DNA from: a virus
Strand: one strand, 5' to 3'
Length of the DNA stretch: 64,000 nucleotides
Virus record (IMG/VR): IMGVR_UViG_3300030616_000017
Location: 83,159 to 147,158 of that record
Shown: piece by piece, positions 2,803 to 16,636 of the stretch
Layout of the letters: the number at the start of each line of letters is the position of its first letter
Position numbering within the stretch: the stretch's first letter is position 1
Translations under genes and position numbers: made by a program
The notes under the pieces: generated by a model
Seen by the model: only the letters and a program-made list of their open reading frames with translations
The model's database searches: none
What the model was told of the DNA's origin: nothing

Positions 2803-3381
2803 ATGTTACCATATTTATCATACAAAGATTATACTGAATTTTACAATAGGAATGGGCGTACGGTTGACCAAATGGTTAAACCCAAGAACCCACTTAGCGA
2901 AAGGCAACTCCATTCGAAATACGAAAAGTATTTGAAAAAGTTGGATAAGCAAACCGCTAAGATAGAAAGGGGTATGAAAAAATCTCTTAAACCCTCTAAG
3001 ACTAAGATTGACGAGGCGTGGAAAAAAGTAGCCACTAAAGTGAGAAGAAGAGATAGAGTATGCCAACTTTGGCCTCGTCTCTTCGCTAATGAGCAGAACG
3101 AAGTAATAACATCTACTGGCTATTTTTTACTAGACATTACAGATCCTGCTCACATTTTTAGTAGAGGTTCGTACCCCCATATGAAATATGACGAAGAAAA
3201 TGTAGTATTGTTATCACGTCTTTTTCATAGCCGCATTGATCAACTCCAAGATCCTGTTACAGGAGAGTCAATTAGCCCTGAAGAAAGGCAACAGTGGTGG
3301 ATACGCATTGTAGGTAAAAATCGTTACGACAAATTATATAACAAAGCTCACAAGAAGGAAAAAGAGGAAACGAATGGCTAA
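2803..3381 (+). CDS. NinG/HNH-like nuclease-fold protein
   Basis: VRRRDRVCQ...DPAHIFSRG...DEENVVLL..FHSRID pattern. Confidence 0.5.
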   Translation: MLPYLSYKDYTEFYNRNGRTVDQMVKPKNPLSERQLHSKYEKYLKKLDKQTAKIERGMKKSLKPSKTKIDEAWKKVATKVRRRDRVCQLWPRLFANEQNEVITSTGYFLLDITDPAHIFSRGSYPHMKYDEENVVLLSRLFHSRIDQLQDPVTGESISPEERQQWWIRIVGKNRYDKLYNKAHKKEKEETNG

Positions 3382-4507
3382 AAGACCAAAAAAAGAACAA
3401 GAAGCAACTACACCCGATGTAACAAAAGAATTAAATTCACTTATGAATTCAATTAACAAAGCTTACGGAGATGGCATAGTACAAATAGGCGAAAGCGTAA
3501 TGAATCAAAAAGTGGAAAGATGGGAAATTGATTCTCCGAACGTGTCTTATGTGTTAGGAGGAGGAATTCCTAAAGGACGTATTATAGAGTTGTACGGGCC
3601 GGAGAGTTCTGGCAAAACAACATTAGCTACTTTTATGGCCGCTCAGATTCAGCAGAGAGGTGGAAAAGTAGCTGTTATAGACGCTGAACATGGTTTCGAT
3701 ATGGAGTATGCAGAAACGCTCGGCTTGAAAAAAGAAGAGGTAGTTTTCTCTCAACCCAGCTCAGGAGAGCAAGCCCTCAATGTTACACAAAAAATGGCTG
3801 AATCCGGTTTAATCGATTTTATCGTTATAGATTCTGTTGCTGCTCTCACGCCCGAAGCAGAAATTGCAGGAGAAATGGGCGACCAGACTATGGGTCTTCA
3901 AGCTCGTTTGATGGGGAGAGCTTTAAGAAAACTCATCGCTGTTTGCAACGAAACAAAAACTACTCTTTGTTTTATTAACCAAATCAGAATGAAAATCGGG
4001 GTATTGTATGGTAACCCCGAAACCACTCCTGGAGGCAAAGCCCTCAAATTCTACAGTTCTGTTCGTCTTGAAATCCGTAAAGTAGAGTGGATCAAAGAGA
4101 AACAAGAAGTAATAGGAGTTACTTCTCGTGTAAAGGGGGCTAAGAATAAAGTAGCACCTCCTTTTAGAAAAGCGGAAATAAATATTATTTTTGGAAAAGG
4201 ACTGCAATACGAAATGGAATACGTAGACCATGCCATCACCTACGACATTGTAAAGAAAGGAGGGGCGTGGTATAGTGTATTTGATGAAAAGGGGGAATTC
4301 ATAGATAAGTTTCAAGGCAAAGACAATCTTGTGGCTTATCTAAAAGAGAACGATGATGTATTCTCTCTCATCAAAGAACAAACTAAAAAAGCTATTGCAG
4401 GTAAGGTTATTAACGAGGTAGAGGAGGAAGAAAATGAACAAGCATTTGAAACCGATGAAATCGATTCCAATAGACTACAAGAAGATGGCTTACAATCAAC
4501 TGATTGA
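3374..4507 (+). CDS. recA: recombinase A
   Basis: GPESSGKT Walker A, IDAEH, DSVAAL, GLQARLM, NQIRMKIG, ETTPGGKALKFYSSVR. Confidence 0.98.
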   Translation: MAKRPKKEQEATTPDVTKELNSLMNSINKAYGDGIVQIGESVMNQKVERWEIDSPNVSYVLGGGIPKGRIIELYGPESSGKTTLATFMAAQIQQRGGKVAVIDAEHGFDMEYAETLGLKKEEVVFSQPSSGEQALNVTQKMAESGLIDFIVIDSVAALTPEAEIAGEMGDQTMGLQARLMGRALRKLIAVCNETKTTLCFINQIRMKIGVLYGNPETTPGGKALKFYSSVRLEIRKVEWIKEKQEVIGVTSRVKGAKNKVAPPFRKAEINIIFGKGLQYEMEYVDHAITYDIVKKGGAWYSVFDEKGEFIDKFQGKDNLVAYLKENDDVFSLIKEQTKKAIAGKVINEVEEEENEQAFETDEIDSNRLQEDGLQSTD

Positions 4508-4601
4508 GGTTATCTATTACAGCCAGTTGGAATTAGAAGAAAGGGGAACCAAAACCTCTTGTAAGGAAAACTCGCTAAGACAAAAATATATAAGACAATA
4601 A
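4434..4601 (+). CDS. small hypothetical protein (55 aa) overlapping recA 3' end
   Basis: GAGGAGG SD then ATG 4434; fills the gap to the MazG gene. Confidence 0.45.
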   Translation: MNKHLKPMKSIPIDYKKMAYNQLIEVIYYSQLELEERGTKTSCKENSLRQKYIRQ

Positions 4602-4617
4602 AAGGAGTACAACAATA

Positions 4618-5004
4618 ATGGATTGGAGTGAATATCAGGAAGGTACAACAGCAACAGCCATGTTTAAGAATTCTGTAAAGGATATTATTCTTTTTGATAG
4701 AGAGGAAGGACAGAGCAATCAGAGAGTATTGAATTCCTTAGAGTTAAGTTACATAGGCCTAGGTTTAGGAGAAGTAGGAGAAATTCAGAATAAGCTTAAA
4801 AAGATTATTCGTGATGATAAAGGGATTATTAGAGAAGAGGTCCGCAAGGATTTGTTAAAAGAAGCAGGAGACGCTCTTTATTATCTTACACAATTAGTTG
4901 ATAAGCTTGGAGGAACATTAGAAGAAACAGCTCAGGATAATCATGATAAACTTTTTTCACGAATGGATAGAGGGGTTATTCAGGGTTCTGGTGATAATAG
5001 ATAA
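4618..5004 (+). CDS. MazG-like NTP pyrophosphohydrolase
   Basis: GLGEVGEI..KLKKIIRD...KEAGDALYY, GSGDNR C-terminus. Confidence 0.85.
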   Translation: MDWSEYQEGTTATAMFKNSVKDIILFDREEGQSNQRVLNSLELSYIGLGLGEVGEIQNKLKKIIRDDKGIIREEVRKDLLKEAGDALYYLTQLVDKLGGTLEETAQDNHDKLFSRMDRGVIQGSGDNR

Positions 5005-8715: not shown

Positions 8716-8820
8716 GGGGGAGAAAATGGATTCGACTGCTACACTGCTGAAGCGACGAAAGGCCCAAAGTAACGAAAGCTGAGGTGTAGCAGGACTCGGG
8801 TTCGATGCCCGACTCCTCCA
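8716..8820 (+). ncRNA. ssrA: miniature tmRNA (tRNA-like domain only)
   Basis: GGGGGAG/CTCCTCC acceptor with G3.U70 and A73; GGATTCGAC; 9-bp H2 CTGCTACAC/GTGTAGCAG; GAC; T arm TCGGG-TTCGATG-CCCGA; 39-nt interior. Confidence 0.8.
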
Positions 8821-8833
8821 AAATAAAAAATAT

Positions 8834-9166: not shown

Positions 9167-9210
9167 TTTTTGTAAGAAATCTATATAGTTTTTTCTTACA
9201 AAATCTCTTT

Positions 9211-9284
9211 GCTCCCTTCGTCTAATCGGTTAGGATATCGCCCTTTCAAGGCGAAGATATCGGGTTCAAGTCCCGTAGGGAGTA
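9211..9284 (+). tRNA. tRNA-Glu(TTC)
   Basis: Cloverleaf, loop CT-TTC-AA. Confidence 0.93.
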
Positions 9285-9330
9285 AAACATTTTACTTTAC
9301 TTTTTGGTAGAAAATGATTATATTATATAT

Positions 9331-9565
9331 GTAGGCAGAGGGAGTTCCTCTAAAAAACACGGTGAAAGTTTGAATACTCTCCGCCTACTTTATTGAAATT
9401 AATATGGCATAGAGGGTTCCTATACTATCAACTTTAAATTGAATTCTACCCTCCGCCATTTTAATATGAGTAATTAAGGGCATAAGAAGTTCCTAATGTA
9501 AAGAATTTACAGGGCAACTCCTACGGGAGCAGGGCCCTGTGCCAACAAACTTACTTCTCGCCCTT
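9331..9565 (+). ncRNA. three tandem Y-RNA-like bulged stem-loops (9331-9388, 9404-9459, 9476-9565)
   Basis: Each unit: ..GGC-A(T/G)A-6bp helix ending GT-TCCT-variable loop-T-AC..-bulged C-GCC..; helix sequences covary; own promoter 9296-9324. Confidence 0.7.
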
Positions 9566-9592
9566 TTATTAACCTACCAAAAGGAGAATCAA

Positions 9593-11536
9593 ATGATTTC
9601 CACTCTACGTCTTTTTAATGGTATTATTATTCCCAACAAAGAAGTTCCTGAAGATACTAATTCAGTAATATGGCCTCATGAAAAGTCTTACGAACAGCTT
9701 ACTAAAGAAACTCTCAAGAAAGGATACATTGTTGATAAGGCTATCTATTTTAATCTTACTCCTGAAGGCTTAAAAGACTTTAACAAGGCTATGAAAGAAA
9801 AGCTTACTTTTCATCGAGATTGGAATAATAGCTTTTATAAGTCTTGGAATAAACTGGAAACTCTTTCAGATTTTGAATTGCGTTTAGACCAGCTTTTTCA
9901 TTACTTTACTACGTATGGAGCCGAAGCTCTTGGAATAAAAGATTCTTTTGTTTACCTCCCTAAAGGCAATACTTTTATGCCCCCTGTAAGTGAAGATTTT
10001 TCTTTTCTTTATATTCGTGGATTTGAAAGAGAAGAAATTCAGGAAAAGATTGTAGCTATGGTTGGTTCTGGAATTGCTCTAAAAGAAGAAACCATTGAAG
10101 ATCTTCTTACTATTGTTATGGAATTTTCAAAGAAGCACATTTTCGACATCTTCTCTGTTTGCAAGAACAAGGAAGTGAAGGTTCGATTAGCAGAGTTATA
10201 TGATTTTATTCCTAAAAATGTAGGAGAATTTCTTAGATACGTTATTTACAAGAATACAGGGAAGTCTCTTGTTATTAAGAATAAAGCTACAATTGACGCT
10301 ATAAAGATAGGGAGAGATAGAAAAACTCCTTCTTATTTCTATGCGTATAGAGATGCTTATGGGCTTGAAAGTCTTGCTAAAAACTTTTATCGGTATAAGC
10401 CTCTTCTTCTTGCTTTTCGGTCTGCATTCCCTGAACTAAAGCCACTGATTAATCAAGTAAGAAAACTTGCTGTAAAGTTCCATGAACCTATGAAAGAAGA
10501 TTTTCTTAATACTGTTACCAAAAAAATCAAACAGAATGCTGTTCTTAATCTCACCACTTTAGAACAAGAACTCTTTAAGGCAAACACCTTTAGAAAAGTA
10601 CGGTTGCTATATGCTCTTCAGAATCTGGAAAGCCAAACTGAAGATAAAATCTATAATATTCGGAACGGTAAACAGTATGTAACGAAAGCAAGTATGCCTC
10701 GATTTAAAAAAGAGGATGTTGCTTTTTTAGCTGATAAGGTCTATTCTCATATTGTTGAAGATATTAAACCAAATGTAGAAGGTAAGACAGTTTTGGTTCA
10801 TCCAAGACTTGCATATGCTCTTCCTTCTTCAGAAAAGAATTTTATAGGAAACTACCCTGTCAAGAGTAAGGTAGAATTCAACAGTACAAGAGACCTGATT
10901 ATTGGTGTTCACTGGAAAAATCAAAAAAATAGAGTAGATCTAGATCTTTCTCTTCTTAGTCTTGATGGAACCAAGTTTGGATGGAATGGTCGTTATAGGG
11001 ATGAAGGAATTCTTTTTTCAGGCGATGTGACTGATGCTCCTGGAGCAGGAGCTTCTGAGTTTTATTATTTCAAAGGTGTTAAAGACGGGATGTATTCAGT
11101 AGTTTTGAATTATTACAATTCTTATGGGGTAGAAGAAGAATGCCCTTTTGATATAATTATTGGGGCTTTTGATGGACAAGATATTAATAGGAATTTTATG
11201 TTACGCCCTGAAAATATTGTTTTTCAAGCCTCCTCATCTATCGGCCCTGAACAGATTAATCTGGGAATGGTGGTTATAGAGGGAGACAAAAAAGTATTTA
11301 GTATGATAGAGGGAAAGAGAGCTCGTGCTTCAGTGTCTGCTAACGATGAACTCAATGCTGTATATTTGAATGCACTTAAATCTGAAACTGAAAATATTAT
11401 ATTTCTAACAGATGTGCTTACTGATGCTGGAGCTGTAGTAGTAGAAGATCGAGAAGATTCAGTTATTGATTTTGATCTTACTCCTACCTATATTCAGAAA
11501 GATACCATTATGTCAATGTTTACAAAGGAGAGGTAA
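9593..11536 (+). CDS. helical (Ro/TROVE-like) + C-terminal TerD-like domain protein
   Basis: SD AAGGAG before ATG 9593; C-terminal VDLDLS..GWNGRY..FSGDVTDAP.GASEF; long helical N-terminal region. Confidence 0.6.
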   Translation: MISTLRLFNGIIIPNKEVPEDTNSVIWPHEKSYEQLTKETLKKGYIVDKAIYFNLTPEGLKDFNKAMKEKLTFHRDWNNSFYKSWNKLETLSDFELRLDQLFHYFTTYGAEALGIKDSFVYLPKGNTFMPPVSEDFSFLYIRGFEREEIQEKIVAMVGSGIALKEETIEDLLTIVMEFSKKHIFDIFSVCKNKEVKVRLAELYDFIPKNVGEFLRYVIYKNTGKSLVIKNKATIDAIKIGRDRKTPSYFYAYRDAYGLESLAKNFYRYKPLLLAFRSAFPELKPLINQVRKLAVKFHEPMKEDFLNTVTKKIKQNAVLNLTTLEQELFKANTFRKVRLLYALQNLESQTEDKIYNIRNGKQYVTKASMPRFKKEDVAFLADKVYSHIVEDIKPNVEGKTVLVHPRLAYALPSSEKNFIGNYPVKSKVEFNSTRDLIIGVHWKNQKNRVDLDLSLLSLDGTKFGWNGRYRDEGILFSGDVTDAPGAGASEFYYFKGVKDGMYSVVLNYYNSYGVEEECPFDIIIGAFDGQDINRNFMLRPENIVFQASSSIGPEQINLGMVVIEGDKKVFSMIEGKRARASVSANDELNAVYLNALKSETENIIFLTDVLTDAGAVVVEDREDSVIDFDLTPTYIQKDTIMSMFTKER

Positions 11537-11537
11537 A

Positions 11538-12650
11538 ATGAGAGACCTTGCTTATATTGCTAAAATTGAAAAGCTTGAACCCATTAAAGATAAGGATAGA
11601 ATTGAACTCGCCACAGTAGCTAATTGGGAAGTAATTGTAGGAAAAGGAGAATATAAGGTTGGAGACCTTGTGGTGTATGTTGAGTATGATACTGTTCTTC
11701 CTGTCAAGCCCGAATTCGAGTTTCTAAGAAAAAGATGTTATTCAAAACTTTATGACGGGTTTAGAATTCGTAATATGTCAATGGCTGGTGTATTTTCTCA
11801 AGGAATTGTGTTTCCTCTCTCTATTCTCCCAAAGAGTGTTAAGATTGAGGAGGGAAGAAATGTTGCTAAAGAACTAGAAATTGTTCGATATGATCCAGAA
11901 GAGATACGAGAAAATAGAATGATTCATAATTCCAAGCCTAAAAATCCTCTTATGAGATTTAAGTGGTTTAGAAAACTTCGGAATAAATATTTTGGTAAAA
12001 CTTCCTCTTATCCTTCTACAGTAAAGAAATCTGATGAAACAAATATTCAGAAGCTTTTCAACGCGTACAAAGAAAATTATAATGATGTGAAGTTTTATGC
12101 TACGGAAAAAGTAGAAGGACAAGCAGCAACCTATGTGCTTAAACGAGGTCGCTTTCACGTTTACTCCCACAATAAGAGTGTGCGGAACGATGGAAAAAAC
12201 AATTGGTCAGCAACTGCTAAACTGTATGACATTGAAAAGAAGCTGCGTCAGTATAAAAGAAAACACGGAGTAGAGCTTGCAATCCAAGGAGAAATTGCGG
12301 GGCCGGGAATTCAAAAGAATATCTATGGGTTTGATACATTTAGATTTTTCGTATATAAAATCACTAATGTGAAAACAGGTGAAGCGTACAACTTCGTGGA
12401 TTTAGTTAATCTTATTGTAAAGTTAGATCTATTTCTTTGTCCTCTTGTTTATACATCTATATATCTTAATGCGTTTGAAACCGTACAGGAAATTCTTGAG
12501 CATAGTAATGGAGATAGTGTATTAAGAAAGGATAAGAAGATTCCAAGAGAAGGGCTTGTATGGAGAGCTGTAGAAGATCAAAATATAGGGTTTAAAGCTA
12601 AGAGTCCGGTATACCTTGCAGCTTGGGATAAAAAAGATAAAACTGAATAA
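11538..12650 (+). CDS. ATP-dependent RNA ligase, DRB0094-like, N-terminal OB domain
   Basis: DRIELATV...GVFSQGIV; motif I EKVEG, QGEIAGPGIQKN, EGLV, FKAKS. Confidence 0.85.
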   Translation: MRDLAYIAKIEKLEPIKDKDRIELATVANWEVIVGKGEYKVGDLVVYVEYDTVLPVKPEFEFLRKRCYSKLYDGFRIRNMSMAGVFSQGIVFPLSILPKSVKIEEGRNVAKELEIVRYDPEEIRENRMIHNSKPKNPLMRFKWFRKLRNKYFGKTSSYPSTVKKSDETNIQKLFNAYKENYNDVKFYATEKVEGQAATYVLKRGRFHVYSHNKSVRNDGKNNWSATAKLYDIEKKLRQYKRKHGVELAIQGEIAGPGIQKNIYGFDTFRFFVYKITNVKTGEAYNFVDLVNLIVKLDLFLCPLVYTSIYLNAFETVQEILEHSNGDSVLRKDKKIPREGLVWRAVEDQNIGFKAKSPVYLAAWDKKDKTE

Positions 12651-12716
12651 AATTACTTGATTTTTTTCAAATTAGCTGTTATATTATAATCTGTAACCAA
12701 AATGAAGGAGTTTAAA

Positions 12717-13223
12717 ATGAAAAAACTACTGCTTGTAATTATGTTGTTTCTTTTTACCACGTCTTTTACTTTTGCAGGTAAAGCTATCAATACTGAGTTA
12801 ACTAAGTTTACTTATGAGACTTGTCAGGCACATAATGTCCCTTTTGATATTGTTATTGCAATAGGGATAGTAGAAAGCGATTGGAGAAATCTTAAATCAT
12901 ATAGATCCAATTCTAATGGTTCTTATGATGTGGGAATCTTTCAATTGAATAGCCGTTATACTGATTATTATGAAAGAACATTTTGGTATAAAGAGGAGGA
13001 TTTTAATCCTTGGAATGAATATCATAATGTAGAAATGGCTGTTATGTATTTGGAACATCTTTACAGTTATACGAAAAATTGGGAGGATGCTGTTAAAGCG
13101 TATAATACTGGTCTTCATGGTTTGAAAAAGTATCCTGAAACCGCTATGGCGTATTTAGCTAAAGTAGCTAATGCATTAAATCGAATTCAGGTGTTTACAG
13201 AGGATTATATTTATTATGATTGA
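12717..13223 (+). CDS. secreted lytic transglycosylase (SLT)
   Basis: Signal peptide; VES, GIFQLN, AYNTG motifs. Confidence 0.85.
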   Translation: MKKLLLVIMLFLFTTSFTFAGKAINTELTKFTYETCQAHNVPFDIVIAIGIVESDWRNLKSYRSNSNGSYDVGIFQLNSRYTDYYERTFWYKEEDFNPWNEYHNVEMAVMYLEHLYSYTKNWEDAVKAYNTGLHGLKKYPETAMAYLAKVANALNRIQVFTEDYIYYD

Positions 13224-16545: not shown

Positions 16546-16636
16546 AGGAGATGATCTTCACGGGGGACTGTAAATCCCTTCTGCGTTAACAATTGTGAAG
16601 TGGCTGCAGGGTTGGGTTCGATTCCCTCATCTCCCA
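16546..16636 (+). tRNA. D-armless tRNA-Tyr(GTA)-like
   Basis: GGAGATGA/TCATCTCC acceptor, loop CT-GTA-AA, T loop TTCGATT, no D hairpin, long variable arm. Confidence 0.7.

Follow-up and report, generated by a model that had tools for sequence, protein, structure and literature searches.

We analysed a 64,000-nucleotide (nt) stretch of viral DNA (positions 83,159 to 147,158 of IMG/VR record IMGVR_UViG_3300030616_000017), referred to below as the window, in which three short hairpin units (U1, U2 and U3), a gene for a protein of 647 amino acids (aa) and an RNA ligase gene follow one another on one strand within a tRNA gene cluster (Table 1). An earlier note on this DNA had read the locus as an operon of Y-RNA-like hairpins, a Ro-like protein with a TerD-like C-terminus, and a ligase for tRNA repair. 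We identified the hairpins as members of an RNA family that is linked exclusively to the family of the 647-aa protein. Since RNA and protein are found together again in other phages and in bacteria and archaea, the module is probably a particle of RNA and protein that has not been described before, similar in plan to Ro60 with its Y RNAs but made of unrelated parts.

Table 1. Features of the locus in window coordinates. SD, Shine-Dalgarno sequence; R1, covariance model of the hairpin family.
Feature	Position	Strand	Evidence and remarks
tRNA-Glu	9210-9285		directly before the promoter-like site and the hairpin units
Promoter-like site TTTACT-17 nt-TATATT	9296..9324	+	9/12 consensus match; -10 box ends 7 nt before U1
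Handle RNA unit 1 (U1)	9331..9388	+	GUAGGC-AGA-GGGAGU-UCCU...U-ACUCUC-C-GCCUAC; plain 30-nt loop; R1 46.6 bits, E 7e-12
Handle RNA unit 2 (U2)	9404..9459	+	AUGGC-AUA-GAGGGU-UCCU...U-ACCCUC-C-GCCAU; 30-nt loop; R1 54 bits, E 3e-14
Handle RNA unit 3 (U3)	9476..9565	+	AAGGGC-AUA-AGAAGU-UCCU...ACUUCU-C-GCCCUU; R1 43.5 bits
647-aa protein gene (P0001, uncharacterised family)	9593..11536	+	SD AAGGAG 9581-9586
TerD-fold domain, residues 428-595	10874..11377	+	VIA and Foldseek matches
ATP-dependent RNA ligase, Rnl5 (DraRnl/NgrRnl) type, 370 aa	11538..12650	+	PF21189, PF09414, NgrRnl match

The three units share one architecture, with differing helix sequences. The two ends of each unit form a lower stem of 5-6 base pairs (bp), which is followed by an internal loop with 3 nt on the 5' side (AGA in U1, AUA in U2 and U3) facing a single C on the 3' side; the upper stem, of 6 bp, ends in GU and then UCCU, and closes on the 3' side with U-AC. 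The earlier note had placed three covarying hairpins with a fixed 3-nt/1-nt internal loop here, and all three were recovered where it had put them. Folding z-scores were -1.7, -2.2 and -3.4 for U1, U2 and U3 respectively, and the apical part, or cargo, of U3 (folding energy of the unit -32.6 kcal/mol) is a 62-nt G+C-rich hairpin (CAGGGC..GCCCUG with an inner CUCC-UACG-GGAG). The U2 loop (window 9418-9447) contains UCAA-CUUUAAA-UUGA, that is, a 4-bp stem with an anticodon-loop-like loop of 7 nt, CUUUAAA; this hairpin is not conserved among the other units of the alignment described below (A3). An Rfam scan of 8.5 kb around the units, at E up to 1, gave no match on any of the three, and over the 147-kb phage genome R1 found U1-U3 only.

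The protein gene begins 27 nt after U3, which leaves the SD sequence free, and its start codon was set by the family consensus MxSTLRLF. The ligase ATG, 1 nt after the TAA of the 647-aa gene, replaces a listed TTG at 11466, and the ligase SD sequence is located within the end of the 647-aa gene. The open reading frame (ORF) and the DRB0094-like ligase of the earlier note are confirmed, the ligase being of the Rnl5 type. The single promoter of the earlier note fared less well: a -10 box does precede U1, but the consensus match is partial and the site must be regarded as weak, because comparable matches are not enriched in the surrounding region. The closest relative (L002; L numbers denote sampled loci) has an A/T-rich -10-like box at an equal distance ahead of its first unit.

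We investigated the distribution of the hairpins around homologues of the 647-aa protein, of which 50 loci came from genomes of bacteria and archaea and a further 80 from contigs of viruses. The first two homologous loci examined contained the same upstream units with other helix sequences, and a strict pattern scan gave far more matches than chance would: 236 in the upstream regions of homologous genes (129 kb in all), compared with 48 in the remaining 840 kb and 36 on the reverse strand. When 142 short units were aligned, with the register kept at both ends (A3, the basis of R1), the alignment had a covariation score of 0.697, against 0.239 when shuffled (0/500) and at most 0.19 with slid partners. 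The covariation includes G-U pairs, and the outer pair 2-76, on which the scan placed no constraint, forms in 121 of the 142 units (AU 51, GC 42, UA 18). With R1 we identified 77 matches in 53 cellular or cultured-phage loci and 218 in the 80 viral loci; 294 of these 295 copies, in approximately 130 loci, share the strand of the adjacent protein gene. Both the G-U pairs and this strict strand bias indicate that the units are RNAs rather than DNA repeats. Searched over five bacterial genomes of 6.9-13.7 Mb, R1 found exactly one copy in each, adjoining the protein gene. The earlier note had considered that hairpins missing near homologues would undermine its proposal; they occur beside nearly every homologue, and this objection therefore fails.

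Across 210 units the handle consensus is GGC-AUA-RRNRGU-UCCUA, or in its full form GGC-AUA-RRNRGU-UCCU / U-ACYNYY-C-GCC. The unpaired C facing the 3-nt loop was a requirement of the pattern scan. Conservation reaches 93-99% at positions that the scan left free (A-9, A-7, G-2, U-1, U+3, U(q-1), G(q+7)), among them both As of the 3-nt loop, the G-U that ends the upper stem, and the Us that follow UCC and precede AC. The apical loops of the same units range from 18 to 164 nt. The picture of a constant handle with swappable loops put forward in the earlier note is supported. We found no extra conserved pairs between the ends of the apical loops (mutual information of approximately 0). Among the short apical loops of 170 units, UUGG is present in 34 loops (5.3 expected) and UGGA in 23 (6.4 expected); the pairing partner of these tetranucleotides might be the conserved UCC or, in the manner of a T-box, an NCCA end. 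A kink-turn was considered for the 3-nt loop and rejected, since the helix after the loop begins with Watson-Crick R-Y pairs.

Arrays hold one to six units, and in most loci they end 18-40 nt ahead of the start codon, on the same strand. In L121, L073 and L063, units were identified that follow the gene or lie over 1 kb from it; similarly, the cyanophage S-CRM01 has a sixth unit behind the gene, the cyanophage S-CBWM1 a unit that lies 2.5 kb upstream amid tRNA genes, and Phass-1 six units 1.25 kb downstream of the gene, beneath an annotated coding sequence ('CDS'). As some units lie in such places in several loci, they are probably independent RNAs rather than a leader only. The handle arrays are at present annotated as intergenic or as spurious small ORFs. 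Small hypothetical ORFs overlap the arrays at L134:2791-2937 (S-CRM01 g173c) and L139:5495-5794 (the Phass-1 CDS), and these two are probably not genes.

We additionally identified units with tRNA-shaped cargo. Among 28 long-loop units, 18 carry a T arm, a loop-closed acceptor helix and a D arm, which is the circularly permuted topology of YrlA; the Rfam YrlA model scores these units at 33-50 bits (E down to 5e-8), under its gathering score of 69, and its alignment rests on their tRNA-like part. A reciprocal, tRNA-first form was found in 15 non-redundant, mostly bacterial loci (alignment A5; e.g. L024:2789-2938 and L040:2542-2691). Here the order is acceptor, D arm, anticodon stem and T arm, with the RNA's own acceptor ends and in some cases an encoded CCA, and the handle stands in place of the anticodon loop, its lower stem capped by a small loop; covariation is seen in the acceptor stem and the handle alike. 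The existence of both permutations indicates that the handle is a portable module, joined to a tRNA body at the anticodon position. By strict patterns, at least approximately 30 of approximately 120 non-redundant loci contain a tRNA-like unit. A search for the tRNA-first unit in the 147-kb phage genome gave spurious matches only.

For the 647-aa protein, a word-indexed search returned more than 1,100 close homologues of approximately 630 aa, and an exhaustive profile search 1,922 clusters at 50% identity, 1,179 of them at E <= 1e-30. The family spans phages, bacteria and archaea, and its atlas clusters are 70-91% viral. No Pfam match was found in 42 members, and the protein itself, compared as a single sequence and as a profile with Pfam, PHROGs, NCBIfam and PDB, gave noise only, except for a weak match to NF041916. 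We also searched for fused or longer forms and found none; fusions of Ro-like and TerD domains, which the earlier note mentioned, do not appear in the literature examined. In a Desulfobacteraceae metagenome-assembled genome the homologue is divided into two ORFs (L009:3001-4899; 3001-3999 and 4027-4899), which could reflect a frameshift or an assembly error.

The AlphaFold model of the protein is a confident one (pLDDT, a per-residue confidence, 86; pTM, predicted template modelling score, 0.85). It begins with an alpha/beta part, continues with an alpha-solenoid (residues 146-347, approximately), a beta-hairpin with a long helix and the TerD-fold domain, and ends in a short tail. The beta-sandwich of the TerD-fold domain matches 2qz7 with a VIA Z of 9.4 (root-mean-square deviation, rmsd, 3.2 over 146 aligned residues) and 2kxt with a Z of 9.1, and Foldseek assigns a probability of 1.0 to its matches with 3ibz and 2kxt. 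The TerD-like C-terminus proposed earlier is borne out by this fold match only: the Pfam TerD hidden Markov model (HMM) detected the domain in none of the 42 members, and profile searches of it gave no PDB match. Residues D449, D451, S453, D478 and E489 are invariant in the family, and the acidic motifs DLDLS and SGD..E are conserved about where TerD has its Ca2+ ligands, which is a positional impression only. Searched alone, the N-terminal 425 residues gave no fold match above the helical background (best Foldseek E 0.078), and residues 1-400 had no named relatives in the ESM Atlas. The helical repeat and the beta-hairpin carry invariant basic motifs (FRKIRLAY, YKIRNGK and FYRFKP) that would be plausible RNA contacts.

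The ligase contains the domains PF21189 (PHA02142 N-terminal OB; 1e-27) and PF09414 (RNA_ligase; 2e-16), scores 151.0 bits with TIGR02306, just below the cut-off of 151.15, and has Naegleria NgrRnl (5cot, E 2e-23) as its nearest solved structure. Motifs I, IV and V are intact (K191-VEG, EGLVWR and KAK). RNA ligases occur ten times among the nearest neighbours of approximately 110 non-redundant loci (approximately 9%), and belong to three unrelated families: PF09414 (five, this window included), T4 Rnl1-type PF09511 (three) and RtcB (two). Further loci have RtcB, a CCA-adding enzyme, Pth2 or an RNase T-like exonuclease within 3 kb, one of these loci being that of a DPANN archaeon. We identified tRNA genes, often in dense arrays, in 24 of 82 viral loci (29%), and the homologues of S-CRM01 (gp174) and S-CBWM1 (gp22), both annotated as hypothetical, lie inside a tRNA cluster. 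The RNA-repair or tRNA setting suggested by the earlier note is supported by these recurrences; its choice of the ligase as partner is overstated, as the association is not a fixed one.

Band-7/SPFH proteins are the nearest neighbours five times among the same approximately 110 loci. Modules of SPFH proteins with tRNA-like RNA have reportedly been proposed, by Burroughs and Aravind in 2016, as scaffolds of RNA repair.

Elsewhere in the window, the ligase gene is followed by a gene for an SLT-domain lytic transglycosylase (12702-13223, +), after which another block of tRNA genes begins. Window 8716-8823 (+), a short way upstream of the tRNA cluster, is a 108-nt match to the Rfam model of transfer-messenger RNA (tmRNA), at 59.9 bits (gathering score 47) and over the full model length; it looks like a miniature, apparently tag-less tmRNA. 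A weak tRNA-Sec-like Rfam match (22.8 bits, E 0.68) at window 16547-16634 (+), between tRNA-Gly and tRNA-Gln, may be a degenerate or unusual tRNA. A megablast search against phage records gave no match.

From these data we propose that the three hairpins are small non-coding RNAs, not a decoration of the mRNA, which would act as partners of the protein encoded downstream. The putative handle would consist of the end-formed lower stem, the AUA/C internal loop, the purine/pyrimidine upper stem and the single-stranded UCCUA, and would be bound by the protein, probably via the invariant and strongly basic motifs found in the helical repeat and the beta-hairpin. Beyond the handle would lie the variable apical cargo, elsewhere often a tRNA-shaped body joined where an anticodon loop would be. 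With a portable handle and tRNA-shaped cargo, the particle would present tRNA-like or other RNA modules to enzymes that recognise tRNA or repair RNA, as Y RNAs do for Ro60. The module of this phage lies within a tRNA island, in translational coupling with an Rnl5-type ligase of the kind that seals nicks. Here it would help to maintain a supply of usable tRNAs while infection proceeds, through surveillance, through scaffolding or by shielding cleaved tRNAs, which the ligase would then seal. That the RNAs and the protein are cognate partners is very probable; a role in repair or tRNA maintenance is a closer call, at slightly under even odds. The complete proposal, in which handle RNAs and the 647-aa protein form a particle for the handling of tRNA or RNA damage, we place at approximately 0.55. 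A bolder version, plausible although less likely than not, is a widespread and categorically new class of RNA-protein particle that is not related to Ro60. An orphan-fold protein with a Ca2+-type TerD domain would clamp the portable handle, which would have been grafted onto tRNA bodies in two permutations, in one of which the protein-bound handle takes exactly the place of the anticodon loop. As a tRNA surrogate with a protein cap, the particle could gain access to enzymes that handle tRNA (ligases, CCA-adding enzyme, nucleases) and perhaps to the ribosome, and phages would use it in a tRNA arms race.

Several points weigh against the proposed particle. The 647-aa protein has no recognisable RNA-binding or catalytic domain, and we know of no RNA role for the TerD domain. 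In this phage U1-U3 carry no tRNA-like cargo. Approximately 90% of loci lack any RNA-repair gene in the surrounding 3 kb, and an all-against-all clustering of neighbour ORFs gave no conserved protein partner, in an analysis whose top clusters were antisense shadows of the gene and in which the other PF09414 ligases surfaced only in the Pfam tally. Finally, the position in tRNA islands may be a mere parking place of phage accessory genes.

The main functional rival, which we consider unlikely, is an anti-defence decoy, in which the particle would repair nothing and would be a sponge or inhibitor of host defences that target tRNA, such as anticodon nucleases, with tRNA-shaped or hairpin baits in which the protein-bound handle fills the anticodon position. 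A family that is mostly viral and sits in phage tRNA islands would suit such a role, as would tRNA-like forms that carry the handle exactly at the anticodon-loop position; however, chromosomes of diverse bacteria and archaea carry the module as well, next to RtcB, the CCA-adding enzyme and Pth2, most units, U1-U3 included, have no tRNA shape, and the recurrent ligase neighbours suit repair better. Less likely again, and in our view improbable, is a purely cis-acting leader, by which the protein would regulate the translation of its own mRNA and that of the ligase, or mRNA stability, through operators in the 5' untranslated region. The usual position of the array shortly before the start codon, on the same strand, and the single weak promoter ahead of it here would suit a leader, whereas the units found downstream of the gene or among distant tRNA genes, the variable copy number, the elaborate cargo with complete tRNA-like bodies and their own acceptor ends, and an SD sequence that U3 leaves free would not. 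Leader and independent-RNA roles are not mutually exclusive. A guide-RNA system, with the variable loops as antisense guides to target RNAs or DNAs, is very improbable: the arrays do resemble repeats and spacers in their constant handle, hypervariable loops of 18-35 nt and one to six units, but loop complementarity to the phage's own genome extends over 10-12 nt, with no excess over the shuffled mean of 11.9, and many of the loops hold structured cargo in place of open sequence.

We consider it equally improbable that the module is a highly divergent member of the true Ro60/Y RNA family, a case of homology rather than analogy. Such a relationship might be suspected from the end-formed stem with an unpaired C, as in Y RNAs (PMC4030889), from the YrlA-like cargo and the RtcB context, and from a helical-repeat N-terminus combined with a C-terminal domain of metal-binding type. 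In contrast, neither TROVE (E up to 1) nor vWA_Ro60 was matched by Pfam in the 42 members, under models that do recognise the Ro60 at L018, and the domain in the position of vWA has the TerD fold. A profile-profile comparison (hhalign) of the family with 12 Ro60 sequences gave a probability of 0.4%. The full model matches the Ro60 of phage phiLo (9l5y) with a Z of 4.8 (rmsd 5.7, 167 aligned residues), at rank 32 and within helical-repeat noise, and with the N-terminal model alone Ro60 was not in the top 50, which we take as no support rather than as exclusion. On the RNA side, U1-U3 gave no match to RF02553 (YrlA) at E up to 1, and the Rsr-binding motif of bacterial Y RNAs, GNCGAAN0-1G (PMC4201824), is absent from the 5' strand of the handle consensus (210 units), in which the unpaired C lies on the 3' strand. 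The Ro-like protein of the earlier note is therefore not supported.

Rfam 15, Pfam, PHROGs and NCBIfam have no model for the handle RNA or the 647-aa family, and no description of the pair was found in the literature examined, which did not extend to one key comparative paper on RNA repair (Burroughs & Aravind 2016). A protein family with approximately 1,200-1,900 clusters at 50% identity thus stands without a Pfam model, and its RNA without an Rfam model. If the pairing is true, the module is a second, independently built design of protein handle and tRNA-mimic cargo. To our knowledge this design has so far been known only from Ro60 and Y RNAs, whose function in bacteria is itself unclear. 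Because it occurs in phage tRNA islands and next to RNA ligases of three unrelated kinds, it bears directly on how phages and cells respond to tRNA damage, and it is experimentally testable because two cultured cyanophages with known hosts (S-CRM01 and S-CBWM1) carry it.

Among known systems, the TerD proteins of the Ter stress system (PF02342; 2kxt, 2qz7 and 3ibz) share the C-terminal beta-sandwich, but the 647-aa family has neither HMM-level similarity to them nor Ter operon partners. Its domain follows an orphan N-terminal region of 425 residues in the same polypeptide and is associated with RNAs, which is not known of TerD. The RING proteins of the MXAN_6230/SCO0854 type (NF041916) are matched weakly but consistently by six members, at 22-32 bits, at the start of the TerD-like domain, and with a predicted-structure template modelling (TM) score of 0.64 over 552 residues. 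They differ in their length of approximately 850-1000 aa, their prokaryotic RING domain and their actinobacterial and myxobacterial distribution, are themselves uncharacterised, and are the only distant relatives. For the tRNA-first form alone, tmRNA and SmpB offer a structural analogy only, of a tRNA-shaped RNA with a protein at the position of the anticodon arm; there is no homology and no tag reading frame, and the protein is a different one.

The closest parallel is with Ro60 and YrlA, as in the Salmonella rsr-yrlBA-rtcBA operon, which combines Ro60 (Rsr) with YrlA-type Y RNAs and RtcB (Chen et al. 2014, PMC4201824). Both systems have a large protein gene flanked by one to several small RNAs, an end-formed stem with an unpaired C as the presumed protein handle, modular apical cargo that is often a tRNA mimic of T arm, closed acceptor and D arm, and RtcB or other RNA-repair neighbours, and both are present in phages and in cells. 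They differ in that the 647-aa family has no TROVE sequence or clear fold relation to it, in its TerD fold and handle sequence, and in that most of its units are plain hairpins. The two can nevertheless share one genome: on the chromosome of the planctomycete Bythopirellula, in one case among approximately 130 loci, a genuine Ro60 (TROVE and vWA_Ro60, 549 aa; L018:6684-7868 (-) into L140:784-2433 (-)) is separated from the TerD-protein gene by 1.8 kb, in which a PcfJ-like gene is located.

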